64,000 bases of DNA from an uncultured Schlesneria sp. (GCA_903834925.1 CAILLA010000305.1:7115-71114); one strand, 5' to 3'. Counted from the stretch's first letter, positions 44,230 through 62,040 are shown. Translations and numbers: made by a program. Notes: generated by a model from the letters alone, not told the origin.

Positions 44230-44589
44230 TCAAATTCCGAAGAAGTCTTTGCACGTTTTCATCACCACCGCTTTGAGGATTTCAAACGGAACAGATGCAG
44301 ACTTCTCTTTCAATGTGGAAATCGCCTTATTCCAGACGGTGTCATTTCTGGCAGCGTCTAAAAACTCGTGGCCAGCCCATGTCAGAGACCTCGGTACCCA
44401 AGAAGATTCTGAGAAATCAGAGAGGTCAGTGGCATCCAGTAAACCAGCATCGTGAAGCATTTTGACGTGGTAACTGACCAGACTGGGATTTCTGCTTGGA
44501 AGATTGATGTTGACCCACTCATCTGGGGCTTGATCTGATTTTTCTACAGCGAGCAAAATCTCTCTTACGAGCTCTAGGTCTCGCTTCAT
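44230..44589 (-). CDS. DUF2513-like winged-helix protein
   Basis: MKRDLELVREILLAVEK...VSYHVKMLHDAGLLDA...LTWAGHEFLDAARN. The start overlaps the hsdS stop. Confidence 0.65.
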   Translation of the reverse strand: MKRDLELVREILLAVEKSDQAPDEWVNINLPSRNPSLVSYHVKMLHDAGLLDATDLSDFSESSWVPRSLTWAGHEFLDAARNDTVWNKAISTLKEKSASVPFEILKAVVMKTCKDFFGI

Positions 44590-45713
44590 TGGCCTCCTCC
44601 AGATTCTTGCTGGTTGAATATTTGGTTAATGATGGCTGGTAACAGGGCTTGCGTCTCAGCAGCAGCAGCCGTCAGGAGTTCACGGGCCGCTTCAACTTTC
44701 TCAAATAACTCCCCGAACCATATCTGTTCCTTATAAGCAGGAACCGGGGTCGGAACTTCGAGCAACACTTTGGCACTAGTTGTTCTATTGCGGTCCGCAC
44801 TTCCAGGCGACGCTTGACCTACGTGGTGTAGTCCTTCGGACGTGAGGAGAAAGAAACAAATAAAGCGGGATGTGGCTACACCGGAGAGTGGAACGTAAGT
44901 CAAGTACCGATGCGAACCGTATCGACTATCGTCTTCAGGCTTGGCCACGGCAATCGCCCCCTCCCAAGCCTTGATGTTGCTAATAAGGATATCTCCGGCA
45001 TGCACAAGTTGGGGTCTTTCCCAAGTGATATCGCATCCTTGTAGCGGTGGGTTGTGAAATGTCCCCTTTCCAAAGGATCTGACGGAGACCCCCGGGTATT
45101 CAGTAAATGGGTCAACCAAAACTGGTCGCCTAACAAGTGGAGCAACATCTCCCAATCGATGGCGATCAGCATCTCGTACAATTCGATTGTACGCAGAAAG
45201 AAGCATCCCTTGGAAATGTTCGCCAATTTCATTCAACCGCGTGTTTGCCGCTTGAATTTTGAGACTCAATTCGTCGAGGTATTCTACCACTTGCTTTTGT
45301 TTGGCCAATGATGGAAGGCTGACATGAACATTTGCGATGTCTCGTTCTTTGAGGGAGACGTTTGCAGTGCCTTTCATTAATGGAACAAACAGGGAGTCCT
45401 TCTTTGCCAGAAGCAAGTAATAGAGATACTTTGCATCACACCTTTGGTTATCTTTGGTTTGAAGGGCCACCAGGAGGTCTGCCAACGCAAATTTGCCATC
45501 CTGATAGTGAATACGATGAAGAGCAGCGTCACCGTGGCCAGTTGACGAAACCAGCGGAATACAGACTGTAGGCCCTTCAAGCTGATAAGTACTTGAAGTC
45601 CGTCGGTAGGCTGCAGTAACGACGAGTGGGTATGCCCCAACCTCCGTCTTGAGCGTTGGTGATTCACCTCGAACCAAGTGACAGAGGTCCCCAAGTCGAA
45701 AGCTTTGAGTCAT
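44586..45713 (-). CDS. hsdS: type I restriction-modification specificity subunit
   Basis: Two target-recognition halves separated by a conserved coiled spacer (LPSLAKQKQVVEYLDEL...; VPAYKEQIWFGELFEKV...). It has 4-nt overlaps with both hsdM and the DUF2513 gene. Confidence 0.85.
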   Translation of the reverse strand: MTQSFRLGDLCHLVRGESPTLKTEVGAYPLVVTAAYRRTSSTYQLEGPTVCIPLVSSTGHGDAALHRIHYQDGKFALADLLVALQTKDNQRCDAKYLYYLLLAKKDSLFVPLMKGTANVSLKERDIANVHVSLPSLAKQKQVVEYLDELSLKIQAANTRLNEIGEHFQGMLLSAYNRIVRDADRHRLGDVAPLVRRPVLVDPFTEYPGVSVRSFGKGTFHNPPLQGCDITWERPQLVHAGDILISNIKAWEGAIAVAKPEDDSRYGSHRYLTYVPLSGVATSRFICFFLLTSEGLHHVGQASPGSADRNRTTSAKVLLEVPTPVPAYKEQIWFGELFEKVEAARELLTAAAAETQALLPAIINQIFNQQESGGGQ

Positions 45714-47251
45714 GGCTTCCTCCCCAAAAGATCTTTGATTTCCTGCAAAATCTCTGCAAGTTGGAATTCTTTTCTGAGGATATCTTCTATCAGTTGTTCA
45801 GGCGGCAAATGATCTATGTCGGACTTTGCGTTCGGGTTCTTGATGTCCAGATTGCAGTTCGTTTCAAGAATTTGTTTCGCCGGAATGTTCCAAGCTTGTT
45901 CTGTGACTTTTCGTTTCCCCCACCACTTGAGGCAGCCTGCGAACTCTTCGAACTGGACGGGTTGTGTCTTTGTATATTGTCGCCGCCCTTCAGGCAGGGG
46001 TTGCTCATAAAACCAGACATGCTTCGTTGGTCCAGTCCGATCAAAGAATAACAAGTTGGTGGGAATGCTCGTATAGGGAGCAAAGACTCCATTTGGCAGT
46101 CTGACGATCGTGTGGAGATTGAACCTCGTCAGTAATTCTTGCTTTATTCGTGCACATACTCCTTCAGCGAAGAGAACGCCGTTAGGAACAACTACTGCCG
46201 CTCGACCTGGTTTCGGAGTAGCTCTCAGCTTACGCATGATGAGTTGCATGAAAAGAAGAGCGGTTTCTGAAGTCTGTTTGTCTTCAGCGAAATTCCCTTG
46301 AATTCCTTTTTCTTCCTCGCCCCCAAATGGAGGATTGGTCAGAATCACATCTACCCTGTCGTGTTCGTTGATATCAGTAAGTTTCTGAGAAAGACTATTT
46401 CCCTTGACGATTTGCGGCGACTCCAGCCCATGCAGAAGCAGATTCATCTGACAAAGCATGTAGGGCAGTGTTTTTGCTTCGTTCCCGTAGATACTTCGCT
46501 CTTGAAGGAGTCGTCGGTCTTGAACCGTATTGCATTGCTTCTCCATGTGCCTGAATGCTTCCACCAGAAACCCCCCGGTTCCACATGCCGGGTCAAGAAC
46601 GGTTTCTCCCAATTGTGGATTCATGACTTCCACCATGAAACGAACTACGGCCCTGGGAGTGTAGAATTCCCCCGAGTCCCCGGCTGCATCCCTCATCTCC
46701 TTGAGCATGCTCTCGTAAAGATGGCCCAGAGTGTGGATTTCTTCCGTGGAGTCAAAGTGAATGGCTCCAATCTTGTTAATCACGTCCCTCAGCAGGTAGC
46801 CGCTGTCCATGCGGTTCGTGACCCCTGAGAAAACAGAAGCCACCACATCTCGACGGTCATCTCCGTTACCACCCTGAAGACTTCTGAGGTATGCAATCAA
46901 CCCCTGGCCCTTGGTTCCATCAGGCAGGGTGGCTTCATCGTTGTTGATGAAGTGCTTCAGAACATCACCACTGATGCCATCTTCTTTCGCAGCCCAGTCA
47001 CGCCATCTGTATGGTGATTCGATGACCGGCCTAAACTTCTGTCGTTTCAGTTTGGCTCGTTCTTCTTCAATTCGTTCCTGATCGTCCAGAAACTTCAGGA
47101 ACATCACCCACGTCAGCATGGGTAGTCGGTCCAGGTCACCGTTAAGCCCCTTATCCTTCCGCATGATGTCACGTGCAGACTTGACGAGACTCCCAAGTCG
47201 TTGGGCTGTCGTGAGCGGTTGGTCTGTCTTCTTTACTGCCTTCTTGGCCAT
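45710..47251 (-). CDS. hsdM: type I restriction-modification N6-adenine DNA methyltransferase subunit
   Basis: HsdM N-terminal region (RDIMRKDKGLNGDLDRLPMLTWVMFLKFLDD), FYTPRAVVRFMVEVMNP, DPACGTGGFL and ILTNPPFGG. Confidence 0.92.
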   Translation of the reverse strand: MAKKAVKKTDQPLTTAQRLGSLVKSARDIMRKDKGLNGDLDRLPMLTWVMFLKFLDDQERIEEERAKLKRQKFRPVIESPYRWRDWAAKEDGISGDVLKHFINNDEATLPDGTKGQGLIAYLRSLQGGNGDDRRDVVASVFSGVTNRMDSGYLLRDVINKIGAIHFDSTEEIHTLGHLYESMLKEMRDAAGDSGEFYTPRAVVRFMVEVMNPQLGETVLDPACGTGGFLVEAFRHMEKQCNTVQDRRLLQERSIYGNEAKTLPYMLCQMNLLLHGLESPQIVKGNSLSQKLTDINEHDRVDVILTNPPFGGEEEKGIQGNFAEDKQTSETALLFMQLIMRKLRATPKPGRAAVVVPNGVLFAEGVCARIKQELLTRFNLHTIVRLPNGVFAPYTSIPTNLLFFDRTGPTKHVWFYEQPLPEGRRQYTKTQPVQFEEFAGCLKWWGKRKVTEQAWNIPAKQILETNCNLDIKNPNAKSDIDHLPPEQLIEDILRKEFQLAEILQEIKDLLGRKP

Positions 47252-47367
47252 CTTTTTGTTCTATCGTATAAACCACGTTTGACCCACACACCTGTCTCGG
47301 CCGAATTAACCAATAAAGTGCACTTTAATTTACTCACCGGTCGACCATTTACATCCACAACACCCCC

Positions 47368-49119
47368 TCAGCTATTGTTCGCATTTAGAAGCGTCTCCAA
47401 TTCTTCAGGATGAATGTCTATTGGCATCTCATAGGTCACGCCTCCAATGACAAGGGGTACGTATGCGTCAGACCCTGATGAAAGTTTCTGTTGCCATTTC
47501 CGTGAACGACATGAGTTCCATATTGTTTGAGGCGATTGAAGATGACGCTGTCTAAGCCTATCCTCGAAAGTGATCAGTGAAATCGCAGGGACAGTCTCTG
47601 CCGCATAGTTTCCACTCGGCTCTGAATCGGGCATCAGCACAATCCCGAAATACTCGTCGACCAGTTCCCATCTAACAAACTTAAACATTTCACGCTTTTG
47701 TTCCACAGACATGCCCCGAAGGATCCTTTCACACAAGAGCACCTGCTGCTTCCCAACCTCTGCCTCCTTTGTTGTCGACTCAATTTCGTTCATGTCATCC
47801 GCCGCAATCACACACTTCGCTTGTACCAAGAGGACCTGTGTGGGCACGGAGTCTCGGTAGGCTAACAAATCTAATTCTGAGCATTCGTTCCCGGCATACA
47901 TTTGAACATTGGTCTTGAATGCGTATTTGGCATTCTTTTGGATATGGAGGCCGAATCTGAGTAAAAGCCTCTTCTCCCGTGTGCCATTAAGAGTCGCACC
48001 CAAATTCCTCGTCGAACGGTTCCTACACAACGCTTTAAGGACATTTCTAGGCTGCCGGCTCAGCGAGACTACTAATGGGGACCAAATGTAATCGTTTTGC
48101 ATCGTGAATAGTGGCCGTAAGAACACATCTCCTTTGATATCTCTCTGGTCGTAAGTCAAAAAGCTTGTGATCTTCTGAACAATCTCGGCACTGAGTTTCG
48201 TGTGCGTCACCATAGCATCAAGAAAGCCCCTTCCCGAGACGACCTGAGTCGGCATGCACTCAGACTGAGGCACCTTTTCTTCAAACAATCTCAAATACAA
48301 TCTCATCGCTACATTAGACCAACCCAGGAGTACTCTCCAATAACATGTAAAGTCTGAATAGCTGAAGCCACCGAGGTCGCTCGTAGGTTCCAAGTCAACA
48401 ACGTCAGGCTGCTCAACCGATGCAGATGCATCTAATACCGCTTCACTCAAATACGGAAGTATACTGGTATGATGAATTCTTCCCCTACTTAACACCGGCT
48501 CGATTGTGGCTACGGTATCTGCGATGTAACGCAGCGAACCATCGTTTTCGTTGGATAACATTCCCTTCTGCCTGTGATGAACCAAGTCGGCAAAGTGCAG
48601 GTGAGCACCCGTCCTCTTTAAGGAAGGTCGTAAGAAGCGGATTGTCCTTTTGGACCTGTCGGCCTGAACTTCAAACAATCCTTTTCCGAACCCCACGTGC
48701 AGTAATTCCAACTGAGCGTATGCTGTTGCATGGGAATGGAACTGACCTGCTAGATTGAGTTGTTCCCCTGTAATTGAGTTGATCGTCTTTTGTGCAAGTC
48801 GCCCGGCTAGCCATCGGATTGAGATGGTCAGCCCCTCGTTCCTTGAATGTAAGTACTGCCATACCCCAACTGAGCCCAACGTCGGCTGTACAATCCGCAT
48901 TACGATGGCCATTCCATCGAACGCAGTTAGGAGACTCAAGAGAAGTGTGTCTGGATCGATTGACCATGCTGGTAAGTGAGTATGGAATGGATCAAGAACA
49001 GTGGTCTCCATCTCACGAAGAAAGGCATGTGCCTCCTCTCCTGACAGGGGAAGAGATTCAGGGGCGATTAATATATCTTTTCTTAGAGGCATTTTACATC
49101 TGGCATTTTTGAGCAGCAA
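47368..49119 (-). CDS. hypothetical 583-aa protein embedded in the type I R-M operon (possible PD-(D/E)xK-like motif near the C-terminus)
   Basis: Long ORF between the RES gene and hsdM. SELDLLAYRDSVPTQVLLVQAKCV gives a D...Q-x-K pattern. No family recognised. Confidence 0.6.
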   Translation of the reverse strand: MLLKNARCKMPLRKDILIAPESLPLSGEEAHAFLREMETTVLDPFHTHLPAWSIDPDTLLLSLLTAFDGMAIVMRIVQPTLGSVGVWQYLHSRNEGLTISIRWLAGRLAQKTINSITGEQLNLAGQFHSHATAYAQLELLHVGFGKGLFEVQADRSKRTIRFLRPSLKRTGAHLHFADLVHHRQKGMLSNENDGSLRYIADTVATIEPVLSRGRIHHTSILPYLSEAVLDASASVEQPDVVDLEPTSDLGGFSYSDFTCYWRVLLGWSNVAMRLYLRLFEEKVPQSECMPTQVVSGRGFLDAMVTHTKLSAEIVQKITSFLTYDQRDIKGDVFLRPLFTMQNDYIWSPLVVSLSRQPRNVLKALCRNRSTRNLGATLNGTREKRLLLRFGLHIQKNAKYAFKTNVQMYAGNECSELDLLAYRDSVPTQVLLVQAKCVIAADDMNEIESTTKEAEVGKQQVLLCERILRGMSVEQKREMFKFVRWELVDEYFGIVLMPDSEPSGNYAAETVPAISLITFEDRLRQRHLQSPQTIWNSCRSRKWQQKLSSGSDAYVPLVIGGVTYEMPIDIHPEELETLLNANNS

Positions 49120-49195
49120 AGAAAGCGGGTAACTCAGCCAAAAATAGTCATTGGCTCACTTCGCAGTATTAAAACTGCCGCGTTCATTCGAAATA

Positions 49196-50323
49196 TCAGG
49201 GAAGTACTTGCCCTTCGTTGTTGGCTGCATTTCTCCATGCATCAAAGACGAGTTTGTTGAGTTTAGACTGAACCCTTCCAAATTCAGTATTTGCATAGGG
49301 TTCCTTAATGCCTTCAACAAACTCGAAGTCGTAATTCCAAATCTGAGTGCCCCCAGCACCAGCGTTTATCGCACTGAGCAACTGCCAGTTGTGCGGTGTC
49401 GTCATCCGAAGTCGCATTCGGAGATGGTGGCATCGTCCTTCAGAGGCGATATTGCGTGCTGGGAATACTAGGTTGCATGGGGACAGTGGATTGTCAGTGG
49501 TCACTGCGTTCACGTGGGTCGAGAAATAGCAGATCCCGTCGTAATCGTCTTGCTTTGTGATCCACTGAAGTACGATCTGTGGGATTATGTATTCAGGCTT
49601 ATATGGAGCCTGCGGGTACTTAACGATGATGGAACACAAAGCAACTAGTGGCCACAGAATCAAAAAAGAGGTCAGAAGCTCTCGAATTTCCGGCTGGTCA
49701 GGTAACTGTCCGTCGGGGGACGTGTAGAAGAACAACCTCTTTGGACGATTTGACAAGTTCAGAATTGTGATCTTGTGGTCCTTGTCCAGCCAGAAGGCTG
49801 ACGCGTGAAGCTCATGAAAAGGAGGGCGACCCATCTCTGCCCAGCAAGTAAAAAGAGAGCCACCAAGGTAGATGCACGGCAGGCCTGGGATACTGTACCT
49901 TTGGGTGGCAACGAGGTGCCGCTTCTCAAACGGTATATGGAAAAGGTCTTCTCTTGTCAGTGGACTCTTGAGCTCGCGTCGGACGCGGTACATAAGTCCA
50001 AGCTCACTGTGAGCGAGGCCCTTGAGAGCGTGTTTCGCTACAATATCTCTCAGAGGCTCGATTCCCTCAACGAAACTCTGGTAAGCATCCTGAGGGTGTC
50101 CTGCGAATGTCGCTCGAACAATCTCAGGAGCTTTGCTACAGAACGTCTCAATGTCCTTCCGCCTTGCACTCACAGCAGACGCTACGTCGTGCGGGTCGGA
50201 AAAGCTGTCAAGCAGAGTGGTATATCTGCTTAGCAGTGATTCCACGAAGCCCTGGAAATCATCCGAATTCCGAGTTATTGGGAGCTGGAGAGAAGGATGC
50301 TCAAGCAATTCACGTATATTCAA
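49196..50323 (-). CDS. RES-domain protein (NAD+-targeting toxin family) with an N-terminal extension
   Basis: TQRYSIPGLPCIYLGGSLFTCWAEM (Arg and Glu of RES) and GICYFSTH (Ser). It starts 14 bp after the hsdR stop. Confidence 0.7.
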   Translation of the reverse strand: MNIRELLEHPSLQLPITRNSDDFQGFVESLLSRYTTLLDSFSDPHDVASAVSARRKDIETFCSKAPEIVRATFAGHPQDAYQSFVEGIEPLRDIVAKHALKGLAHSELGLMYRVRRELKSPLTREDLFHIPFEKRHLVATQRYSIPGLPCIYLGGSLFTCWAEMGRPPFHELHASAFWLDKDHKITILNLSNRPKRLFFYTSPDGQLPDQPEIRELLTSFLILWPLVALCSIIVKYPQAPYKPEYIIPQIVLQWITKQDDYDGICYFSTHVNAVTTDNPLSPCNLVFPARNIASEGRCHHLRMRLRMTTPHNWQLLSAINAGAGGTQIWNYDFEFVEGIKEPYANTEFGRVQSKLNKLVFDAWRNAANNEGQVLP

Positions 50324-50336
50324 GGGAGTGTCCTAT

Positions 50337-52703
50337 TTAGGCGGCGTAGAGAAGTTGCTGAAGACGACCCACGGCTTCAAGAAGCTTATCAGGTCCACCA
50401 AACTTGCTCGCAATTTCGACCACATTCCCATGAGTAGAGAGTGGAGGAACTTCCAGGACATCTGGAACTGAGAACTGGCTCGTTCCGTGCTCAGCGTACT
50501 TGTCCAGAAGCTCATCGAGGATCGTCTTGGCTTCAAGTCCGAATTGATCAAAGAAGTCGACCTTTTCACTTCGTAATTTCTCAGCCCTTTGCTTGCGTGT
50601 CAGTAGTGGTGCATTGAACGCCAGATGGCAGAGGAGGTCGAAGGGATCAGCTTCCGGGTGGCCAGCCTGGGCACAGAGTTCTTGGAAATCGATCCCTCGG
50701 TCTTCCAGCATTTGGACTACAGCAGACCTCTGATCAAAGTCAGACCATTGTTTCCGCAGGTCTTCAGGGCTGGTATAGAGCGTTTTTACCGTCTCTGCGA
50801 CGTATTGCGTGATTTGAACGGTTCGCAGCTTTGAACCGTCAGAGTCCAGATCCATTGTGACTTCGGTATCAATTCCACCGGGTCCACCGTGGGCATAGAA
50901 TTTTCGTGGCTCCGTTGTTTCGTCATCAAAGTCTGGTTTGCTTGTTCCTTCTTCTGCTGGTGGTTTTTCTTCTTCTTCCACCACTTCGGAACCTTCAATT
51001 GTTTCACCAGCTTCGTCAATTGTCTCGGTAGTGGCGAGAGATGGCTCTCCATCGAAATCAGGGTCGGCGAACAGTCTCGTGGCTGATCCGGTGTAGTCCA
51101 GAATGTTGAAGAACAATTTGCCTTTTTCTTCACGAACCCGAGTTCCTCTCCCAATGATTTGCTTGAATTCAGACATTGCCCCTACGGTTCGCACCAGAAC
51201 CACGTTCTGACAGGTTGGGGCGTCAACTCCCGTTGTCAGCATCTGGGACGTAGTGAGGATCACAGGGTAAGGCTCCTCAGGGTCCTGAAATTTGCTGAGA
51301 AAGCCCCTACCGATCGAGCCTTCATCAGATGTGACTCTGGCCACGTATTCTTCGCCAAGGGGAAGATTTTGAACAATATCTGCATTCAGATTGTTCAACA
51401 CTCTTCGCATCTGGTCCGCATGTTCTTGATCCACACAGAAAACAATCGTTTTGGATAGACGGTTTGTTTTCTTCAGGAAGTCCGTCAGATGGCGTGCAAT
51501 AGCATCAGTACGAGCCTGAAGGGAAACCACACGCTCAAAATCCTTGGTGTGGTATTCCTCATCTGGGATCTCACGACCGTATTTGTCGAGCTGCCCTTTG
51601 GTGGGCCTCCAACCTGCTGCATCGAATGTTGTCAGAATCCGATGAACCCGATAGGGAGACAGGAATCCATCGGCAATTCCCTGCTTCAGGCTGTAAGTGT
51701 AGAGGGGGTTGCCAAAGTAGAGGTAGGAATCTCGATTGTCTTCTCGTAGTGGTGTGGCCGTCATTCCAAGTTGATAGGCCGGTTCAAAATATTCCAGGAT
51801 CTCCCGCCAGTTGCTTTCGTCTCTGGCACTCCCCCGGTGGCATTCATCCACCACGATCAGGTCAAAGAAATCAGGAGCATATTCACGGTAGAGCCCTGGT
51901 CTTTTTTCGTCCTTTGCAATCGCTTGGTAGATTGCAAAGTACATCTCTCGGCTCTTGATGGCCCCCCCCTCGATCTTCCATCGGGCATCTCCGAAGGGGG
52001 CGAAGTCCTTATCTTTTGGGTCGTCAACCAGGACATTCCGGTCTGCCAGAAACAGAATTCGAGGCTTTCGGGTTGCATCGGTATTGGCATTCCATCCGGC
52101 AGACCAAAGCTTCCAACAGATTTGAAAGGCCACCGTGGTCTTTCCGGTCCCTGTCGCAAGAGTCAGTAGACAACGTTTTTGACCAGTCAGGATTGCTTCG
52201 ATTGAACGATCGATGGCAATTCTCTGGTAGTACCGGGGAATCTTTTTCGGGTTGTAGAAGTCCGGGACCAGTCTGGCGTTGGCCACTTCTCCAGAGAGGC
52301 CTTGCCCTTGCTGGTATCGAAACCAGAGTTCTTCGGGAGTGGGAAACCGTTCGACCTCTTTCTCCTGGGAAGTGAAGTAGTCGAACTCGATGATGTCCCG
52401 GCCATTGGTGGCGTAAGCAAACTTGAGGCCCAGGATGGTGGCGTAATCCTTGGCCTGCTGAAGACCATCTCCCGCTGGTCGTTTGTCGGATTTCGCTTCC
52501 ACGACTGCCAAAGTGATGTCCCGGTTGTACCTCAGAAGGAAGTCGGAGAACTTCTTCTTGAGTCGACGTGGCTTCCCACCGGATACAATGATTCGTCCAT
52601 CGGTGAAGGAAGTCTGCTCGCTGTAGAAATGCTTGTCGCCATCCCAGCCGGATGATTCCAGCTTGGGACAGACCAGCTTTCGGCAGGTATCGGCTTCGTT
52701 CAT
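50337..52703 (-). CDS. hsdR: type I restriction endonuclease R subunit
   Basis: HSDR_N start (MNEADTCRKLVCPKLESSGW), helicase motifs LATGTGKT and VVDECHRGS, and an EcoEI-R-C-like tail. Confidence 0.92.
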   Translation of the reverse strand: MNEADTCRKLVCPKLESSGWDGDKHFYSEQTSFTDGRIIVSGGKPRRLKKKFSDFLLRYNRDITLAVVEAKSDKRPAGDGLQQAKDYATILGLKFAYATNGRDIIEFDYFTSQEKEVERFPTPEELWFRYQQGQGLSGEVANARLVPDFYNPKKIPRYYQRIAIDRSIEAILTGQKRCLLTLATGTGKTTVAFQICWKLWSAGWNANTDATRKPRILFLADRNVLVDDPKDKDFAPFGDARWKIEGGAIKSREMYFAIYQAIAKDEKRPGLYREYAPDFFDLIVVDECHRGSARDESNWREILEYFEPAYQLGMTATPLREDNRDSYLYFGNPLYTYSLKQGIADGFLSPYRVHRILTTFDAAGWRPTKGQLDKYGREIPDEEYHTKDFERVVSLQARTDAIARHLTDFLKKTNRLSKTIVFCVDQEHADQMRRVLNNLNADIVQNLPLGEEYVARVTSDEGSIGRGFLSKFQDPEEPYPVILTTSQMLTTGVDAPTCQNVVLVRTVGAMSEFKQIIGRGTRVREEKGKLFFNILDYTGSATRLFADPDFDGEPSLATTETIDEAGETIEGSEVVEEEEKPPAEEGTSKPDFDDETTEPRKFYAHGGPGGIDTEVTMDLDSDGSKLRTVQITQYVAETVKTLYTSPEDLRKQWSDFDQRSAVVQMLEDRGIDFQELCAQAGHPEADPFDLLCHLAFNAPLLTRKQRAEKLRSEKVDFFDQFGLEAKTILDELLDKYAEHGTSQFSVPDVLEVPPLSTHGNVVEIASKFGGPDKLLEAVGRLQQLLYAA

Positions 52704-52992
52704 GGATCAAGCTCACGATGTGTGGCTCGATCAACAACAAGGCTACTGACGTAGCCCCGGAATTCCTTCCGAATAAGCCTCCCTCTTTCCCTAAATCGAG
52801 CCCGCAGCAGGATAACGGGCAGTGCTCACATATTCCACACAGGTGAAGGATCATCAAAAGTATCATTGCCGTTCCATTTCCTGATCAGGAGAACTTGCCG
52901 GATACCTTTGCAGTTCAATTAAGCCACAAATTTCTTGGCAAACTTGGTACACGGTTTGAAACGGCTCGCTTCGGGGAATCTAGTTCATTATT

Positions 52993-55900
52993 TCAATCAA
53001 ATCTTCTCTCTTCCTCGTCTTCTGACCTCTCTACGGAATGACTCAGGCCCTCAATGTAATCTTGAAGCCAACGAACAACATTGTTGTTCTTTTCATTGGC
53101 AAGCCATTGTTGAGCTTCTTTCCGAAGATGTCGGTACATATCGCTGGGATTACCACACCAGCCGCGGCAATGGAATCGGCCGTGAATTGAACTCGCTATG
53201 TCGTCATTTGCGCCATACCGAGCAACAAAATCTCTCGTGAGTCTGCCCGCCGGTGTCATATCAAATGTTTGGGGAAGAGTTCGTGCCAACCATTGACCTC
53301 TTTTCTTCACATCACTATCGATCCAACTGAATAACAGCTCTGCAGGAAGGAACTGTATAGGCCCAGGGCTGTGATCGGTAATTCCCTTCAGATAACCATG
53401 TTCCAGCCAGGACTGAAGGCCGCGATTTCGATCGTCTTCTGTTTCTACAAATGCCTTCGTAATACACGAAAATGCCTGCTTAGGATCGGATTTAATCAAT
53501 TCCGTCAAAACAGTCTCTTGATTGCCGTCCAGATCCATCAATGTGGACCATTCCCGGCTGCCAACAACCAGCACTCGTTCAAACAATTCCCATTTGCGAT
53601 TCGGAAAACGCTCAATGAATCTTTTGGCCATTCTTGACCAGTAGAAGCAAACTTCATTTCTAATTCGCCGATCACCCATAGCTTCGCTGGTTAAGACTCG
53701 AAACAACAGATCTTCCGGCAGGTCGATCGGTGCCTCCTCATTTTCCATGGAAACGGTGTGACACATTTGTAGTGCATTACCCCAGGACGACGCTGTTCCC
53801 TGTTCCAATTGTACGGAAATCAATTCTTCAAAGACGATTGAAGAGAGCGTTCGCAATTGGCTTGCAAACCACCATCTTTCGAGCCTCTCAAAGCTGATCA
53901 TTCCTTTTCTGCACAGGTCAATTACCTTTGTTACCAGTTTATCTGAGATCCCTGAGGCAATCATTAGGTCAGAGATTCTCGGTGAGAGACTCTTCCTCTT
54001 TGCGAGTTTCAGCAGGTGCGATTCCCACTCTGAAGGATTGGATTGAAAAATCGCTGACAGATACCCGGCTAGAAACAAAACATCTTGACTATTCGCGTTT
54101 CTTTCTTGAGCTGAGACTAAAGTGGAAAGAAGTTTCCGTGTGGCATCTCTCTGGGCAATCCGGTAACCCAAGCCGTAAACAGAGTTCGAACTTTCTGAAA
54201 TAAGCCAGTCAACTTCAACAACAAGCAGTTTGGGTGTCTTCACAATCTGATCAGCAAGTTCATCCAATATGCGATACACTTTATCTACTGGCTTAAACTC
54301 GTGATCATGAAAATCATCCGAGGTGACGTGTTTGACATATCGCTTCAATCTGGACGAGAAAGTGTCACCTTCAAGACGATTGTAAATCTCTTTCATCGTT
54401 CCGATGACTTCAGGTGGCAGTTTGTCTGCTCGGTTCCTAAGTTCAATTTGAAGAAATCGAATTAAGCTTTTCGTGTCCGAAACTGAATCCTGTTCAATTA
54501 ACTGCAACGCGTTCATTACAGGTGTGATCAAACACGGAATTGTCAGGCCGGCATGACCAACCGCTAGGATAGCAGAATTCAAATGAACTCGATCTATATC
54601 CGGCCAGTTGGAATGAAGCTCCAAAAGGAGACCCCAGACACGCTGATAGGCATTCCAAAGTTCCTCGTAAGTCTTTGGCCACCAAAATTCAATTGTCCGT
54701 CGTAATCCTTGATGTTCTGGACCTACAAACCGCATGCCATCATGTATGGAAAGAGCAGAGACGCAGGCCTTCAGGCAAATTCGCCGTATTTCAGGACCAC
54801 CTGTCTCCAGGAATTCTTTCAGGACCTCAAAGCGAAGAGAAGGATCTGACTCCGTGGAAGCCATTCCGGGCGTGAGGTTGAATAAACTGCAAAATGTACC
54901 GGTGGCGTTGTTTGTGTTTTTGGCATTTTCTGCCTCAGCAAGTTTCAGCAACAAACTCACCGCTCCTTGGAAATGGTCTTTCCATACTGCAATACGTTCA
55001 AGTGCCCAGACAATGGATTGGCGTGCGTCGTCAAACCTTCTGAGTTGATCGACTGACATTGATCCTAAAGTACGTTGTAAACAGCGAAGAGTATGATGAG
55101 GGCAGGCCTCCGACAAAGATAGGATGAGATATCCGAGTTTGGGATCATCTGGAAAGAAGTTCTCAGGAATCAAGCCGCCTCTTCCCAATAATCGTTCAAC
55201 AGCTTTTTCGGCTGTTGCCGATTCGTGGGAATATTTCAGCATTTCAATAAACGATCTCCACAATGACTCGGGCATTCTCTCCATTATTTTTGAGATCTCA
55301 AATGTCGAGCCATGTGTGTCCCAGAACTCCTTGTTAAGAAAGATCTGGAACAATTTGGGCGTCAGATAGAGCGTCTTTCCACCTTGAATTATTCGGCGTT
55401 TCTTCAGGTAGTGAATCTCCGACTGGAAATCGTCCCAAGTCAGTCCCTCAATCAAACTGACAATGAACTTGGCTTCGTAAGCTAACTGATCCTGAAAGCC
55501 GAACTGCTGAAATAGGGAGATGTACCGAAGAATTTTCCGCCTGGTTTTAACTTGTTCGGATATTGCTGAATCGTATCCAGCAATGAAGCTATTCCAGACA
55601 GAAACAAATGTCGGTTCCTGCAAAAGGTCCGTATTCTTCAGCCGCAGATTTTCACCAAGCACATGAGCCACACGAGGGCTGCCTTCGCAGAACCAAGCCC
55701 ACCTTTTGGCATCATTCTCACCAATCTCATGGTCCATCAAAATCGACTGGATTGTCTCTGGGCTGACCGGCTCAATCTGTACAACGTGGGTTAGTTCATC
55801 ACGGGAATCTTCTGGCCCATGATCAATTGTGATCAGTTTAATCCGATCAGACCTTGATTTTAGCATGTTCCAAATCTCGGCACGGTCTGCACGTGGGCAT

Positions 55901-57042
55901 TCATCGACAACCAGGAGTACAAAGCAACTGTTATCCGGGTGTAACAATTCTTTGATAAACGAACTCTTAAGCAGTGCCGCACCTTCTTTGGCGTACAACG
56001 TCACTGGAGCCAGATCATCAGCAGATGACAATTCCAAAGCCAATCGAGTTTTCCCTACACCTGGCTCACCCAAAAGTCGAAGATGAGAAGTCACGCCTGA
56101 CCGAATTTCTTGCCGAAGCTCTTCAATTAGTTGTGTATGCTCAGGGCCATAATGAATTTGCGGCCCCATATCTTCATCGCAAGCCCAGGAATCTCTTGAT
56201 CGGAATTCTGCCTGATCAATTTTCAGAAGCCGTGAGCAAAGGCCTGGATACCTTCGGTAATGCCCAAGCAATTGGGTCTGCCCCCAAACCTCAACAGCGG
56301 CTTTTGGATACCCACAATCTGAAAAACACTTCCTTAAGTTCTTAACTGCATTACGATGATCGCCATCTATTGGGTCAATCCCAAAACAGATGAAAACGAT
56401 CCTTTTGCCCTCTTTTAGGGCATTCTGAATCTCAGACCCAAGATGCTTAAAGTCGACCGATCGGGATCCAAATAGTTCTTTCCTCACAACAGACAATTGC
56501 CAGAGTTTGAATTCGCCGGTTTTAATTTGGAATCGCGTACCCGCTGTCAACAAGTCATCTTGAAGTAGTGTGTATCCTTCATCCTCCAGAACAGATGCAT
56601 CGACACCGCCATCCGGTACATTTACCTTGCTGGAAATTGAAATCCGCGTTATCGGAACTTTGATTTCCGCAGCTCTTGCCCAAAGTAAATCCCGAAAGGC
56701 TTTGACAGCGTCCTGAGCAGTCAAGTCATTTAGAACTTGGTCGCTGAGATCGAACAAAGCTGTTCGACTGCCGACAAGCTTTGATCTGCTCTTCTTGAGG
56801 GCATTTGATCTACTCTTCTCAAGAAGCTTGATTTGCTTTCTGAGGGACTGAATGTAATCCCTGGTGGCATGTCTCTCACCCTTTTTCACCCGGCTGACCT
56901 GACTGGTGGTTACCGTCAGGATTCTTGCAATTTCCGCCTGGCTTAGACCGAAGTCAAGAAGGATATCAACCTGTTCGTTAAACTGAATATTGTCTGGATG
57001 AGTTAAATAGGCCCGGTCCATCTGCTTCCTCCCTGCTATCAA
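52993..57042 (-). CDS. HTH + Mrr-like nuclease + STAND/AAA P-loop NTPase + long helical-repeat C-terminus (Avs-like)
   Basis: XRE-like HTH (LSQAEIARILTVTTSQVSRVKKG), PDGGVDASV...RFQIKTG (Mrr-type D...Q-x-K), Walker A GEPGVGKT, Walker B LLVVDEC, and roughly 850 aa of Leu/Glu-rich repeats. Confidence 0.7.
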   Translation of the reverse strand: MIAGRKQMDRAYLTHPDNIQFNEQVDILLDFGLSQAEIARILTVTTSQVSRVKKGERHATRDYIQSLRKQIKLLEKSRSNALKKSRSKLVGSRTALFDLSDQVLNDLTAQDAVKAFRDLLWARAAEIKVPITRISISSKVNVPDGGVDASVLEDEGYTLLQDDLLTAGTRFQIKTGEFKLWQLSVVRKELFGSRSVDFKHLGSEIQNALKEGKRIVFICFGIDPIDGDHRNAVKNLRKCFSDCGYPKAAVEVWGQTQLLGHYRRYPGLCSRLLKIDQAEFRSRDSWACDEDMGPQIHYGPEHTQLIEELRQEIRSGVTSHLRLLGEPGVGKTRLALELSSADDLAPVTLYAKEGAALLKSSFIKELLHPDNSCFVLLVVDECPRADRAEIWNMLKSRSDRIKLITIDHGPEDSRDELTHVVQIEPVSPETIQSILMDHEIGENDAKRWAWFCEGSPRVAHVLGENLRLKNTDLLQEPTFVSVWNSFIAGYDSAISEQVKTRRKILRYISLFQQFGFQDQLAYEAKFIVSLIEGLTWDDFQSEIHYLKKRRIIQGGKTLYLTPKLFQIFLNKEFWDTHGSTFEISKIMERMPESLWRSFIEMLKYSHESATAEKAVERLLGRGGLIPENFFPDDPKLGYLILSLSEACPHHTLRCLQRTLGSMSVDQLRRFDDARQSIVWALERIAVWKDHFQGAVSLLLKLAEAENAKNTNNATGTFCSLFNLTPGMASTESDPSLRFEVLKEFLETGGPEIRRICLKACVSALSIHDGMRFVGPEHQGLRRTIEFWWPKTYEELWNAYQRVWGLLLELHSNWPDIDRVHLNSAILAVGHAGLTIPCLITPVMNALQLIEQDSVSDTKSLIRFLQIELRNRADKLPPEVIGTMKEIYNRLEGDTFSSRLKRYVKHVTSDDFHDHEFKPVDKVYRILDELADQIVKTPKLLVVEVDWLISESSNSVYGLGYRIAQRDATRKLLSTLVSAQERNANSQDVLFLAGYLSAIFQSNPSEWESHLLKLAKRKSLSPRISDLMIASGISDKLVTKVIDLCRKGMISFERLERWWFASQLRTLSSIVFEELISVQLEQGTASSWGNALQMCHTVSMENEEAPIDLPEDLLFRVLTSEAMGDRRIRNEVCFYWSRMAKRFIERFPNRKWELFERVLVVGSREWSTLMDLDGNQETVLTELIKSDPKQAFSCITKAFVETEDDRNRGLQSWLEHGYLKGITDHSPGPIQFLPAELLFSWIDSDVKKRGQWLARTLPQTFDMTPAGRLTRDFVARYGANDDIASSIHGRFHCRGWCGNPSDMYRHLRKEAQQWLANEKNNNVVRWLQDYIEGLSHSVERSEDEEERRFD

Positions 57043-57304
57043 TCCTATAGGCGAACTGTATACGCAACTTTTATTGCGTGCAATCAGTGTTGCGTCAAGA
57101 GCTTGCTAGAAGAAATCTCTTTTTCCGGAGGAGATGTCACGCGTAAGACATTATCCCAGTTTCACTTGCGTATTTTGTCCCACAAGCTTTTAGACACGGG
57201 GACCGGGCCGTTATCCAATCCCAGTCCAGCTGGATCAGGAGAACTTGCCGAGTTTGACTATCACTTCATGAAGTCGTTTGAGTTCGTTGAGTCTGATGTC
57301 AGGA

Positions 57305-57640
57305 TCATGTGTTCCTGACAGAGTTCGGGTCACGACCAATAACCAATTTCCTGGTTAGTCCAATCCCCTTAGTCTTTCCGCATTGCGGTAGACAAGGGGT
57401 CTGCTGTTCTGTGTTTTCGTTCGGTGATTTGATCAGGGGTGAAAAGGTCTCTGACAGGAACTTTCCGATGAAACTCTGGACATCCATTTGTCGAAGAGAA
57501 GCTTCGGCCTGCACCCGATAATAAATTGCCAAAGGGAGAAAGGCGTACACGCCTCTTGTCCCAGGGGGCTTTTTCCCGTCTTTACCTTTTCCGAACGGAT
57601 TGACGTGCGGTTCAACCGCTTCGTCACTTGTCATGCTCAT
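57305..57640 (-). CDS. hypothetical protein, possible ribbon-helix-helix fold
   Basis: RGVYAFLPLAIYYRVQAEASLRQMDVQSFIGKFLSE fits a beta-strand/helix/helix pattern. Confidence 0.4.
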   Translation of the reverse strand: MSMTSDEAVEPHVNPFGKGKDGKKPPGTRGVYAFLPLAIYYRVQAEASLRQMDVQSFIGKFLSETFSPLIKSPNENTEQQTPCLPQCGKTKGIGLTRKLVIGRDPNSVRNT

Positions 57641-57864
57641 GGTTTTCTTTCTTTTAGGAGAGGGATGGAAAAGACAACCACCTCAGATTCCAGACCGTAG
57701 GTCTATTCCTCTGAAGTGATTGTCATCTCTTTTCAAAGTACCCTGCCTTTGAGTTCTACTGTCTTGCTTGTCCTTCTATGAACCTGCTTCTTAACTTGAG
57801 TGTTATTCCTGTTCCTTTGGTTATGCATGTTCAATTCCTTTGTTTTGTTGTTCTTCTTCTAAAT

Positions 57865-58254
57865 CTACCTGTTATTTTCCTGGTTCTGATACTTCTCATT
57901 CAACTTCGAACTCAACTTCGAGTTGTGCTTTATTTTGAGCGTGTCGCTCGTTTTCTGTGGCAGCAACGCCAAGCTGGTTTTGGGTGGCTCCAACTGTAGC
58001 CATACGAGTTTGCCCACTTTGTTTGAATGATTGACAGCGGCCCCTGTTTTCTCATCCGCAGCAGCTTTGGCATCCCCGTCTCCACATGCAGATACCGCAT
58101 CCGCATCTCCTTTTATGGCCTGTGCTCCCCACGCAATATCGGCATGGACGTAATTCCATCCCATCCACAAGGCAAGGCGTTCCAAATGAAAAAAGCCCCG
58201 TGGCCCAAAAGGAACACGAGGCTGTGGCGATTTGACTTGAGAACGGTCAACCAC
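57865..58254 (-). CDS. hypothetical protein
   Basis: 129-aa ORF starting 9 bp after the stop of the DnaX-like gene. Confidence 0.35.
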   Translation of the reverse strand: MVDRSQVKSPQPRVPFGPRGFFHLERLALWMGWNYVHADIAWGAQAIKGDADAVSACGDGDAKAAADEKTGAAVNHSNKVGKLVWLQLEPPKTSLALLPQKTSDTLKIKHNSKLSSKLNEKYQNQENNR

Positions 58255-58262
58255 AATACATC

Positions 58263-59063
58263 TTAAATCAGCCTTCTTTTACGATTGCCAAGCGTCGCTG
58301 CTTGAGATTGTGGCCTCAAGGAACCAAAGAGTTCATCAAGGTATTCATCGGTGAGTTTTCCACCGGTTTCAGAAAGCACCTTCCGAGAAAACTCGCCTAA
58401 TGGACGCATTTCGCAGTTGTAAGCCTCGCTCACCCGTTCCAACTGTTGGCGAGAATTGAATGAAACCTGATGATTTCTCAACTGATTTTCGAGGAAATTA
58501 ACGGCTTCTTCTATTGTTGGTCTGGTGATCTCGTATTCGTAGGACAGAAGACGGCTTCGAACTGCTTCCTCGATCTCATCTGGATGGGTAGTCGCTAATA
58601 GGATTGTCGCTTTTGTACCTTCAAGCATCTTCCTGAACCGACGAAGTAAGTCAGGTTTCATATCTTGAAGTTCGTCGATAAACACTATTTCCCAAGGCCG
58701 CTGAAGAATGAGTTTTAGGTCGTCCAGTATTGCTTCCGTGACGTCCTCACCACCATATTCGTGATATTCGACAATTGGACACGTGGCATCATTTATGGCC
58801 TTCTTGCACATTGAACAAGAGTCACAAGGCTCGTACTCACCAACCTGTCGCCGCTGACAAAGCTTCGCTCTCGCAACGATACGAGCGAGTGTGGTCTTTC
58901 CTGAACCTATTGGACCATTCAAAAATATCACTTGTGATAACTTATTGTTTGCCAGCATCCCCGTAATGCGTTTCAGAACTTGTTTATTACCCACAACATT
59001 TTTGAAAAGTTGTGGGCGATCCCCGTCAAATGGTTTCGCCACCGTGTTGGTTTCACTCATCAA
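58263..59063 (-). CDS. DnaX (clamp-loader gamma/tau N-terminal)-like AAA+ ATPase, truncated
   Basis: FKNVVGNKQVLKRI..., Walker A NGPIGSGKTTLARIVA, a 4-Cys Zn module (LCQRR...EPCDSCSMCKK), Walker B VFIDELQDM, sensor-1 ILLATTHP and SRL in place of SRC (VRSRLLSY). The protein is only 266 aa. Confidence 0.7.
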   Translation of the reverse strand: MMSETNTVAKPFDGDRPQLFKNVVGNKQVLKRITGMLANNKLSQVIFLNGPIGSGKTTLARIVARAKLCQRRQVGEYEPCDSCSMCKKAINDATCPIVEYHEYGGEDVTEAILDDLKLILQRPWEIVFIDELQDMKPDLLRRFRKMLEGTKATILLATTHPDEIEEAVRSRLLSYEYEITRPTIEEAVNFLENQLRNHQVSFNSRQQLERVSEAYNCEMRPLGEFSRKVLSETGGKLTDEYLDELFGSLRPQSQAATLGNRKRRLI

Positions 59064-59206
59064 ATACTCTTTCTATTGGTTTAATTCGATGTGGGCGTAC
59101 CGCCCTCGTTCAGAACATGAAACAATTTCATGTCCCTTGGACTGCAATCCTGCAATCTCGCTTCATCTCCTTTTCTGATCAGTTGTTCCAATTGCAGCTA
59201 AAGATT

Positions 59207-60424
59207 TCAGTCGTCTGCAATCTCCTCAGCTTTTGGCAATCCTGAAAATGGGTTGTTGGCCCCAAAAGGAGGTGATCTGGATTCTGCAAATCGGTAGTAG
59301 ACTTGGATTCCTTGTCTTCGAATTCTTGCATGCTTTTGAGATTCACGTACGATCCGAGATTCAACAATCCCTTCGTCAATCAACTGCTTTAGGTGGGCCT
59401 TTACCGTGTTATGAGAGAGTCCCGTTTGTTCCATTCCCAGCGATCGTGTGAACACTTTTCTGCCGAAATCATTGTTATCTGGAATCGTGTTTTGATACTT
59501 TGGATCAGCAGCAAAGGCTTCGAACAGAATCGTTCCAGTTTCAGCGGCATAGGGAGTCAGTTTGGATAATTCCCTCGGGATAGGAAGTGAATTTAAGAGC
59601 TCTCGGGTTACCCTGTAGTCTGGAATCGTGATCGCTGTTTCAGAATCGCTTTTGAATTCACCGTTGACGTTGCTTAATTCAATTCTCAATGCAGCAGTCG
59701 CCATCAGGAGTCGATTCAGAATCAGAGCATCACTTGGCTTTATTCCCGCACGGAGCTGATCTCTGAAGGGGCATCTGTATTCCCGTCGATGCTTCACCTG
59801 AAGAAGAACTTGTCGAAGTTTTGTGAAAGCGGGGCTGGCTTCGGTGCCTTGCAGTCTTGAAAAGTGGTATCCGAATCCGCTGAGGGAACGGTCCGTTTGT
59901 CTTGCCATCAGAGATAGAGTTGGACCAATTTGTGGGAACCTGGTCTGCTTGTCGGAGATTGTCAAGACGGAGGGTGGAGAGACTCTCCCGGTGTCCCTTG
60001 TGGCTGCTTCCGATGCATATCGGACAAGATTCTCATGTAGGCTCCTGAGCACTACTACTTCTGTGTCCTTGAAATCAGCATCTACCAGATCCCGAAACTG
60101 TTTGATGGTATCAACATGTTTCACGGTTTCGGGAAGGATGTTGACCACTCTGTCCGTGATTAGACCTTCAGCTGCTGGATCATCTGAAAAGATTGCAAGA
60201 TTCAGCGGAATCCCTAGACGCCCTGAGGCAAGTGCCATGAATATCATTAGACTGATGCGGTCGACTCCGACTCCCAAATAATCTCCCAGAAGTGTGGCAA
60301 TTTCAGAAAGTGCATGGTCCCCAAGAATCTCAAACAGATGGTTTGGTTCGTTTGGACTTGTACTGATAAGATCAGTAGCGTTCCGCTCATCCACTCGAAG
60401 AGCTTGCCGTTCGTTTTCAGGCAT
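59207..60424 (-). CDS. hypothetical island protein with a C-terminal winged-helix-like segment
   Basis: 405-aa ORF. The C-terminal VKAHLKQLIDEGIVESRIV looks wHTH-like. No Walker motif is present. It overlaps the upstream HTH gene by 8 nt. Confidence 0.55.
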   Translation of the reverse strand: MPENERQALRVDERNATDLISTSPNEPNHLFEILGDHALSEIATLLGDYLGVGVDRISLMIFMALASGRLGIPLNLAIFSDDPAAEGLITDRVVNILPETVKHVDTIKQFRDLVDADFKDTEVVVLRSLHENLVRYASEAATRDTGRVSPPSVLTISDKQTRFPQIGPTLSLMARQTDRSLSGFGYHFSRLQGTEASPAFTKLRQVLLQVKHRREYRCPFRDQLRAGIKPSDALILNRLLMATAALRIELSNVNGEFKSDSETAITIPDYRVTRELLNSLPIPRELSKLTPYAAETGTILFEAFAADPKYQNTIPDNNDFGRKVFTRSLGMEQTGLSHNTVKAHLKQLIDEGIVESRIVRESQKHARIRRQGIQVYYRFAESRSPPFGANNPFSGLPKAEEIADD

Positions 60425-60794
60425 CCTGAACCTCGCCGCTGGTGATACCCTGATTGGAACGGAGAACTTCCAAAAGGTCTGTCCGCGTGTAAACGAACTT
60501 CCGCCCTATTTTTTGAGCTCTGATTGCTCCAGACAGCCTGAGGTCTCGGAGAACATGTTGCTTAACCCCACAAGCTTGGGCTGCCTCAGCCTCATCCAAA
60601 GCGATCCGCCCAATCGGCCAATCTAGGACGGAAAGGGTTTCCCGCAGTACTTCTTCAACGAGTTCTCGGAGTAGACTGCGGTCAAACGTCAGTTGTAGCG
60701 CCGCTGGGTTATGCGAGCTGCCGCTATCGGGAAATTGAATAGAAGAATGTGCCATTGAGAACCTCCAAAGTTTAATTGGAGGAGATTGTGGCAA
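60417..60794 (-). CDS. excisionase/AlpA/MerR-like HTH (HTH_17) DNA-binding protein
   Basis: LDEAEAAQACGVKQHVLRDLRLSGAIRAQKIGRKFVYTRTDLLEVL. An alternative start at 60755 is possible. Confidence 0.65.
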   Translation of the reverse strand: MPQSPPIKLWRFSMAHSSIQFPDSGSSHNPAALQLTFDRSLLRELVEEVLRETLSVLDWPIGRIALDEAEAAQACGVKQHVLRDLRLSGAIRAQKIGRKFVYTRTDLLEVLRSNQGITSGEVQDA

Positions 60795-61971: not shown

Positions 61972-62040
61972 GATTCAAAATCCAGTGTCAGCAATGACGT
62001 GTGGGTTCGAGTCCCACCATCGGCACTATACTGCGAATGG
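61972..62040 (+). repeat. attR: partial tRNA-Leu 3' copy (not a functional tRNA)
   Basis: It matches 27796-27865 except for the 6-nt variable-arm loop, one 1-nt indel and one substitution. It lacks the acceptor 5' strand and the D-arm. Confidence 0.85.

Follow-up and report, generated by a model that had tools for sequence, protein, structure and literature searches.

STAND proteins of the Avs8 group, the name now given to PD-lambda-4, are the closest described relatives of the protein considered here. Avs8A, a STAND protein that contains an Mrr nuclease domain, is triggered by HK97-fold capsid proteins (10.1101/2025.07.02.662641), and both capsid-protein sensing and effector-dependent toxicity of Avs8 were confirmed by Lee et al. 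(10.64898/2026.01.04.697583; Nature 2026, PMC13581612). Avs8 has been described as a two-gene system, an operon of Avs8A with Avs8B (PD-lambda-4B), and PD-lambda-4 has been reported in Proteobacteria only. The gene analyzed in this study lies on the minus strand of a 64,000-nucleotide (nt) stretch of DNA from an uncultured Schlesneria sp. (GCA_903834925.1, CAILLA010000305.1:7115-71114), here called the window. Its product probably belongs to the Avs8/PD-lambda-4A lineage and serves, as a single protein, as an antiviral STAND (NLR-like) sensor; its N-terminal helix-turn-helix (HTH) domain probably represses the gene's own promoter.

According to the ORF list and the translation, an uninterrupted minus-strand open reading frame (ORF) spans 52993..57042. 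The first-pass annotation, made from the sequence alone, gave it a product of 1349 amino acids (aa), counted from a TTG codon at 57042. The ORF stands, but the length probably has to be revised, because a GGGAGG Shine-Dalgarno sequence is located 6 nt 5' of the ATG at 57021 and the orthologs, which are collinear over their full length, begin at the equivalent methionine. The likely product starting at this ATG has 1342 aa, and residues are numbered from it throughout. All the motifs quoted in the annotation were found: PDGGVDA at aa 136-142, FQIKTG at 164-169, GEPGVGKT at 318-325 and LLVVDEC at 369-375. The gene and the modules of its product were located as follows.

52993..57021, minus strand: coding sequence of the Avs8-like STAND protein, 1342 aa plus stop codon (TTG at 57042 as alternative start, 1349 aa)
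56767..57021, minus strand: XRE-type HTH plus long helix (helices at aa 9-23, 28-35 and 39-46; long helix at aa 54-84)
56134..56760, minus strand: Mrr-like PD-(D/E)xK nuclease domain, aa 88-296 (D137/D141 at 56596-56616, Q165-x-K167 at 56515-56532)
55342..56133, minus strand: STAND nucleoside triphosphatase (NTPase) module, aa 297-560, ending in a winged-helix region
56047-56070, minus strand: Walker A motif GEPGVGKT, within the STAND NTPase module
55897-55917, minus strand: Walker B motif LLVVDEC, within the STAND NTPase module
55663-55689, minus strand: GxP motif CEGSPRVAH, within the STAND NTPase module
52996..55341, minus strand: alpha-helical solenoid sensor, aa 561-1342

Standard searches with the single sequence said little about the protein: Pfam gave matches to HTH_3 and AAA_16 only, both below threshold, NCBIfam gave nothing useful, and a whole-protein sequence search against the PDB returned noise. 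The ORF is nevertheless not a chance one, because 252 homologs were found in a word-indexed search and 3123 cluster representatives at an E value of ≤1e-3 in an exhaustive search.

None of the PADLOC models for Avs1-5 matched the protein, and membership in Avs1-5 was rejected on these grounds. The Avs-like character that had been proposed from the sequence was borne out through PADLOC PD-Lambda-4_A, now Avs8, which matched aa 299-788 (306-795 in the numbering from the TTG) with an E value of 6.3e-31 (105 bits). This match covers profile positions 223-711 of 1283, or 38% of the model length, and so falls short of full length; the same model matched all 21 aligned family members (best E value, 1.8e-36). 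For comparison, plasmids were searched by tblastn, the NTPase region being the query, and WP_222892472.1 from the Enterobacter cancerogenus plasmid NZ_CP082282.1 was obtained. Its match to PD-Lambda-4_A reached 1777 bits over positions 1-1283, and because this is the whole model the protein was considered a true Avs8A. In this plasmid locus (L005, 3152-9210), its flanking genes are one of the Abi family, with a match to PADLOC PD-T4-5 (E value, 3e-23), and one for a DUF2335 membrane protein.

BLASTP aligned aa 89-758 of the Schlesneria protein with aa 11-683 of the Enterobacter Avs8A (E value, 6e-24; 24% identity), pairing NVPDGGVDASV with NAPDGGVDVHV and TRFQIKTG with TVFQAKKH. When the family profile was compared with Avs8A by hhalign, the alignment comprised 1019 columns (aa 90-1160 with Avs8A aa 2-1094; probability, 99.93%; E value, 1.8e-35). 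The nuclease domain (98.1%; E value, 1.3e-13), the NTPase (98.5%; E value, 1.6e-15) and the winged helix with the first part of the sensor (aa 560-790; 97.7%; E value, 1.9e-12) were also recovered one by one, and because each module is separately collinear and significant, all but the first ~87 aa can be regarded as a homolog of Avs8A. Avs8/PD-lambda-4A of Escherichia coli, Klebsiella and Enterobacter (Vassallo et al. 2022) thus has the same order of modules, every one of them homologous. However, only the Schlesneria protein carries an ~87-aa XRE HTH and predicted operators, it has no Avs8B-like partner, its GxP motif is an intact GSPRV where the Enterobacter Avs8A has GNARV, and its host is a planctomycete-type bacterium, in contrast to the Proteobacteria from which PD-lambda-4 has been reported. 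Since the PADLOC match is not full length, no two-gene operon was found and the trigger is assigned by analogy, the protein is best filed as belonging to a sister family, or new variant, of Avs8 rather than as a member in the strict sense. The initial description, an Avs-like STAND protein with an Mrr-like nuclease, is sharpened accordingly, its modules being collinear with those of Avs8A and Avs3 being its best match in fold.

The P-loop NTPase, which had been read from GEPGVGKT and LLVVDEC, appears to be of the STAND type, with Walker A, Walker B and GxP motifs all present. Across the family (50 homologs), the Walker residues G318, E319, G321, G323, K324, D373 and C375 are invariant, and so are G447, P449, R450, A452 and H453 of the GxP motif. 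The GxP motif is said to be a STAND-defining feature in the classification of Leipe, Koonin and Aravind from 2004. In an AlphaFold2 (AF2) model of aa 290-1342, with a predicted local distance difference test (pLDDT) score of 88.9, the P-loop domain is followed by helices and a beta-hairpin that make up a helical/winged-helix region. The best match in the PDB to the NTPase and sensor of this model, according to Foldseek, was Avs3 bound to terminase (8dgc_A; E value, 2.3e-6); besides Avs3, the top match, the NTPase fold matched RFC and Cdc6 with E values of ~1e-4. A generic AAA or ORC/Cdc6 ATPase is argued against by the GxP motif, the fold match to Avs3 and the homology to a published STAND protein. 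The placement rests on this homology, Avs8A being called a STAND protein in the literature (10.1101/2025.07.02.662641; PMC13581612).

The C-terminal ~780-790 aa, modeled with confidence, are all helical and resemble HEAT/ARM/TPR-like solenoids, the next Foldseek matches for the sensor being transportins, CAND1 and PP2A-A HEAT solenoids. The first-pass annotation had described ~850 aa of Leu-rich helical repeats; repeats of the leucine-rich repeat type were rejected because both the AF2 model and Foldseek indicate an alpha-solenoid. The combination of a nuclease effector, a STAND NTPase and a TPR-like sensor is also that of Avs3 and Avs4 (SeAvs3, 8DGC, and EcAvs4; Gao et al. 2022), but these proteins have no detectable sequence homology to the protein described here, sense terminase or portal and do not have an HTH.

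The effector is expected to be the domain at aa 88-296. D137, G138, G139, D141, Q165, K167 and G169 are invariant among the 50 homologs, and the sequence PDGGVDA...FQIKTG resembles GDGGIDGV...VYVQAKRW of EcoKMrr (DGGIDG...VQAK). The AF2 model of aa 1-300 has a pLDDT of 90.7, with most of the nuclease part above 90. The predicted helices (aa 102-119 and 176-184) and strands (aa 127-129, 142-144, 163-167 and 208-212) are arranged as alpha-beta-beta-beta-alpha-beta, which is the order in PD-(D/E)xK nucleases; D137/D141 precede strand 2, and strand 3 carries Q165-x-K167. The PD-(D/E)xK core claimed from the translation is thus confidently predicted to have the fold. EcoKMrr and the other Mrr_cat nucleases share DGG[IV]D...[VF]Q[AI]K, and in a weak profile alignment helix 1, the three strands, helix 2 and strand 4 are collinear. 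In the domain described here, however, the insert that separates strand 2 from strand 3 is longer, and the fusion partner is a STAND module, where those nucleases have a winged helix that reads modified DNA.

Avs8A starts exactly at the point where the nuclease domain of the Schlesneria protein starts, and it has no domain corresponding to the N-terminal HTH in the BLASTP and hhalign comparisons, so that the HTH is indeed an addition to the Avs architecture, as had been noticed at first sight. The XRE-like HTH had been placed at aa ~30-60. It is weak in the Pfam scan of this protein (HTH_3, aa 24-60; E value, 0.002, below the cut-off) and clear in the orthologs and in the model: HTH_3 was recognized in 12 of 21 family members (best E value, 3.4e-9), and the pLDDT of the HTH region is above 90. 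When the model of aa 1-300 was searched against the PDB and BFVD with Foldseek, the matches were C.AhdI, C.BclI, HipB, HigA, phage XRE/CI proteins and antitoxins, with probability ~1, TM(target) of 0.55-0.82 and root mean square deviations of 1.4-3 Å over 53-63 columns. As modeled, the N-terminal domain has the XRE-type HTH fold. A recognition-helix segment, GQxSRxKKGERHA, is kept across the clade of HTH-bearing proteins. The C proteins of restriction-modification (R-M) systems and type II antitoxins (C.AhdI, C.BclI, HipB, HigA, MqsA) likewise combine an XRE fold with tandem dyads over the promoter of the toxic gene under their control. However, those regulators are small proteins in their own right, whereas the HTH considered here forms one polypeptide, in cis, with the toxic effector.

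The minus-strand sequence 5' of the ATG is CTCTTGACGCAACACTGATTGCACGCAATAAAAGTTGCGTATACAG, in which two elements were recognized.

57070..57098, minus strand: promoter-like element, read from the sequence (-35 TTGACG at 57098-57093, 17-nt spacer, -10 AATAAA at 57075-57070)
57063..57094, minus strand: two abutting 16-bp dyads, predicted operators (CGCAACACTGATTGCA at 57094-57079 and CGCAATAAAAGTTGCG at 57078-57063; CGCAAY-N4-RTTGCG)

The pair of dyads overlaps the gene's own promoter at both -35 and -10. It supplies the only matches to CGCAAYNNNNRTTGCG with no mismatch or one mismatch in the 64-kb window; the other matches in the window are three, each with two mismatches, compared to 9.7 expected by chance. 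Seven orthologous loci that encode HTH_3-bearing proteins of 42-50% identity (P0006, P0050, P0020, P0047, P0004, P0017 and P0001) were compared. All seven have a looser dyad, GCAAY-N5-TTGC, 37-84 nt 5' of the start codon as well as a promoter resembling TTGACG-N17-AATAAT, and in three of them the dyads form a pair at a distance of 16 bp. The DNA flanking these dyads and promoters cannot be aligned. Outside these promoters, GCAAY-N5-TTGC occurs about once per 28 kb of the DNA examined, and because of this low background the probability of finding it by chance at eight of eight loci (the Schlesneria locus and seven orthologs) is negligible. The dyad is absent 5' of relatives that have no HTH (L003/L004 and L017-L019). 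These observations are most likely explained by autoregulation, with the fused HTH binding to the promoter of the gene that encodes it, and repression appears to be the likeliest mode because the dyads cover -35 and -10.

By analogy with Avs8, Avs3 and Avs4, it is possible to propose how such a protein would act. The C-terminal alpha-solenoid would bind a conserved phage protein in its monomeric form, binding would free the NTPase from autoinhibition with exchange of its nucleotide, and the protein would oligomerize, so that the clustered Mrr-like PD-QxK domains would cleave DNA and the infection would be aborted. The ~87-aa HTH, seated on the two abutting dyads, would meanwhile provide negative autoregulation, in cis, of a potentially toxic protein.

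Several observations weigh against this interpretation. The evidence for the nuclease is incomplete: Pfam Mrr_cat matches no family member, NCBIfam is silent on the nuclease domain, and a profile of the domain found no match in the PDB. Foldseek with the model of aa 1-300 returned no nuclease from the PDB or BFVD; the lists were filled by XRE HTH proteins, and the absence of nucleases can be attributed to this. With hhalign, the profile did not match EcoKMrr alone, and its alignment with 11 Mrr sequences, although collinear over 124 columns, was weak (P = 0.002; probability, 13%). A database search with the profile for a bridging sequence annotated as Mrr_cat yielded fragments of the family itself only. 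The statistical tie between the domain and Mrr_cat is thus weak, and the designation Mrr-like PD-QxK nuclease was accepted on the basis of the motif, the predicted topology and the homology to the Avs8A domain that is labeled Mrr in the literature.

The gene also appears to be alone. The PD-Lambda-4 models match no neighboring ORF, so that an equivalent of Avs8B was not seen, and there is no partner gene conserved across 12 homologous loci. The PD-Lambda-4_B models also match no gene flanking the Enterobacter Avs8A, and for this reason a B gene may not accompany every Avs8A. The promoter-like element was not picked up by a generic sigma-70 scan, the final base of its -10 element not being T; planctomycete promoters are poorly characterized. 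A different regulator could bind the dyads, and activation instead of repression is possible. The identity to Avs8A is low (24%), least in the C-terminal sensor, and the trigger may differ.

This last point leads to the strongest alternative, a protein that aborts infection in the same Avs8-like manner, with a sensor that responds not to the HK97 major capsid protein but to another component of the phage or of the host. Such a sensor is quite possible, if somewhat short of probable. The C-terminal part of the sensor (aa 790-1342) is the module least similar to that of Avs8A (hhalign probability, 62.8%; E value, 7e-5; 276 columns), and related solenoid sensors have diversified to recognize at least 13 phage proteins (Lee et al., PMC13581612; 10.64898/2026.01.04.697583). 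However, collinearity with the Avs8A sensor extends over ~600 residues, and the homology of the first part is clear. Among candidate triggers the HK97-fold major capsid protein comes first, being what Avs8 senses, and it is given rather less than an even chance because the similarity of the sensors is low.

It is also possible to assign the HTH a different role, in which it does not autoregulate but tethers the nuclease or adds DNA affinity, or is an antitoxin-like inhibitor in cis, and the palindromes belong to another regulator or to the promoter itself. The HTH directly adjoins the nuclease domain, and the HTHs recruited in different clades of the family (XRE/HigA-like, HTH_37, MqsA) are classic antitoxin domains. 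On the other hand, the HTH and the specific dyad occur together in all eight loci, the dyad is missing at relatives without the HTH, and there is no other good dyad site within the window. Thus, it seems unlikely that the HTH has such a role instead of autoregulation. The two roles are compatible because the HTH domains of antitoxins themselves autorepress.

A bolder extension of autoregulation is that the HTH couples the immune state to transcription, an NLR-like receptor being its own signal-responsive transcription factor. At rest, dimers on both dyads would repress the gene and perhaps keep the nuclease domains apart on the DNA. The phage protein and NTP-driven tetramerization would then remove or re-phase the HTHs, giving a burst of sensor (positive feedback) that would coincide with release of the nuclease. 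This coupling is regarded as improbable. In the literature searched, nothing specific was found on HTH-fused or autoregulated Avs proteins, HTH appearing only as a domain abbreviation in the legend to a bNACHT architecture. The bare architecture is not unprecedented, because HTH domains appear among the domains associated with bNACHT; a cis-fused, putatively autoregulatory HTH with an operator defined by comparison of loci was not found described there.

Other members of the family suggest that the arrangement may have arisen more than once. In the word-indexed search, the closest of the 252 homologs was 50% identical, and those with names came from Gimesia, Rhodopirellula, Thalassoglobus, Aeoliella, Novipirellula and Pirellulales. 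In the exhaustive search, in which aa 88-1287 were compared with 1.84 billion cluster representatives by phmmer, 3123 matched at an E value of ≤1e-3, 2134 at ≤1e-10 and 804 at ≤1e-30. The typical family member has ~1255-1270 aa and begins with the nuclease domain. A minority has N-terminal extensions of 58-179 aa, which are of the HTH_3/HTH_31 type, the HTH_37 type or an MqsA-type zinc ribbon plus HTH. In a neighbor-joining tree of the core, the extensions occur in at least three to four separate clades, nested among lineages without extensions. Since different families of extension are found in separate clades, DNA-binding heads were acquired repeatedly. In the HTH_37 clade, TGCTGAT-N9-ATCAGCA is found around GATATAAT, over the -10 box of the gene itself, and TAATTATATCA/TGATATAATTA is a further example from this clade. 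A distant HTH_3 member has a different palindrome, TCATGATAACCA/TGGTTATAATGA, over its own -10 box. Because clades with other HTHs carry their own palindromes over -10 boxes, autoregulation may have evolved repeatedly in the family. The palindromes that accompany other HTHs lie over TATAAT-like -10 boxes a short distance 5' of the start codon at L026:3944-3966, L027:3933-3958 and L028:3972-3996.

Cyanobacteria (Pseudanabaena, 34% identity; Nostoc; Kovacikia) and haloarchaea (Haloarcula, Halorubrum, Haloglomus) have plasmids that encode relatives of the NTPase and sensor region. Members of the family thus occur in both bacteria and archaea, and several lineages carry them on plasmids.

An HTH next to a STAND module raises the question of whether the protein is a signal-responsive transcription factor with no role in defense, its nuclease-like domain being inactive. 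MalT, GutR and AfsR are STAND regulators in which the NTPase is likewise combined with a DNA-binding domain and a helical sensor, and the Schlesneria protein has an HTH plus an operator that looks cognate. However, MalT, GutR and AfsR have DNA-binding domains of other types and at other positions (LuxR at the C terminus, SARP), have no nuclease and control metabolic regulons, whereas here the D...D...QxK residues are invariant in 50 homologs, most family members do not have the HTH, and the only good operator in the window is at the promoter of the gene itself. In addition, its homolog Avs8A has been validated by experiment as a defense protein, the gene lies on a mobile island, and neighborhoods rich in defense or toxin-antitoxin genes recur. 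A non-defense regulator is therefore considered very unlikely.

The island to which the gene belongs is an integrative one of 34,176 bp (window 27766-62027), with a GC content of 0.46-0.50 compared to 0.55 outside. No capsid or tail genes were seen in it, and it is therefore not an obvious prophage. Its ends, its other genes and the hairpin downstream of the STAND gene are as follows.

27766-27850: tRNA-Leu(CAA), island boundary
27820-27851 and 61996-62027: exact 32-nt direct repeat of the tRNA 3' end, the second copy with further partial similarity to the tRNA
27927-29201, minus strand: tyrosine integrase, adjoining tRNA-Leu
33680-34741, minus strand: WYL/WCX HTH regulator
34738-35835, minus strand: 365-aa ORF with fragments of DNA polymerase III alpha finger/NTPase
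36730-37578, minus strand: PDDEXK_1 nuclease, in the same cluster (33680-37578) as a 289-aa ORF of no assigned family
38472-39449: DUF932, after the PDDEXK_1 cluster
39547-42159: 870-aa ORF, no matches
42826-43968, minus strand: 380-aa fusion of an XRE HTH and an IrrE/ImmA M78 peptidase (PADLOC RmrA, E value of 6e-43; CapP/CapH weaker), just 3' of hsdS
44586-45713, minus strand: hsdS, type I R-M
45710-47251, minus strand: hsdM, type I R-M
47368-49119, minus strand: 583-aa protein, no Pfam or PADLOC match, between hsdR and hsdM
49196-50323, minus strand: 375-aa protein, borderline RES-domain match, between hsdR and hsdM
50337-52703, minus strand: hsdR, type I R-M
52738..52759, minus strand: weak terminator-like hairpin, from a pattern scan only, between the STAND gene and hsdR
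57305-57640, minus strand: 111-aa ORF, no matches, upstream of the STAND gene
57865-58254, minus strand: 129-aa ORF, no matches, upstream of the STAND gene
58263-59063, minus strand: 266-aa AAA+ protein (DNA_pol3_delta2/AAA; weak NB-ARC/NACHT matches)
59207-60424, minus strand: 405-aa protein with a C-terminal winged HTH
60417-60794: HTH_17 excisionase-like ORF, near the far end of the island

The position immediately upstream of the type I R-M operon, which the first-pass annotation had singled out, was found as described, with a gap of 290 nt to hsdR on the same strand. The hairpin in this gap suggests that the STAND gene is transcribed separately from the R-M operon. The two proteins encoded between hsdR and hsdM could be guests in the operon (44586-52703) that recall the PrrC-type guests of type Ic operons, and could form a further defense or toxin module. 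The RmrA-like fusion is likely to be a damage- or phage-responsive regulator of the defense genes of the island, and the genes upstream of the STAND gene (57305-60424) may represent another two-gene module. Outside the island, a 1248-aa ORF (12057-15803, plus strand) had no Pfam or PADLOC match at the thresholds applied.

At the orthologous loci, the neighbors include type I R-M genes (L022, L023), AbiE (L022, L024, L026, L027), ParE toxins, and TIR and PIN genes. No neighbor is conserved, and the gene therefore appears to work alone. Although the STAND gene and hsdR are on the same strand, 290 nt apart, and type I R-M genes also adjoin two orthologs, a functional accessory that forms one coupled system with the R-M operon can be given very little credence, since the neighbors at most orthologous loci are unrelated with no conserved partner, the gene has its own promoter and predicted operator, a terminator-like hairpin precedes hsdR, and clustering with R-M genes is the usual pattern of defense islands. 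Both a conserved partner and functional coupling to the R-M operon were rejected on the basis of the 12 homologous neighborhoods.

These results extend the Avs8/PD-lambda-4 lineage, which, with current annotation tools, has been reported from Proteobacteria only, to a large and deeply divergent sister family, whose 804 cluster representatives (E value, ≤1e-30) include Planctomycetota, Chloroflexota, Desulfobulbaceae, Nitrosomonas, and haloarchaeal and cyanobacterial plasmids. Present defense-finder models would at most half-recognize this family. If the sensor also reads HK97-fold capsid proteins, it would be a second, very distant example of solenoid sensors keeping to a conserved viral fold. 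The HTH-bearing clades, with an operator defined by comparative genomics, may provide a simple system in which to study the restraint of a toxic, single-protein NLR-like nuclease by an autorepressor fused to it. If the HTH does in addition couple the immune state to transcription, the independent recruitment of antitoxin-type HTHs in several clades would represent a general design principle.

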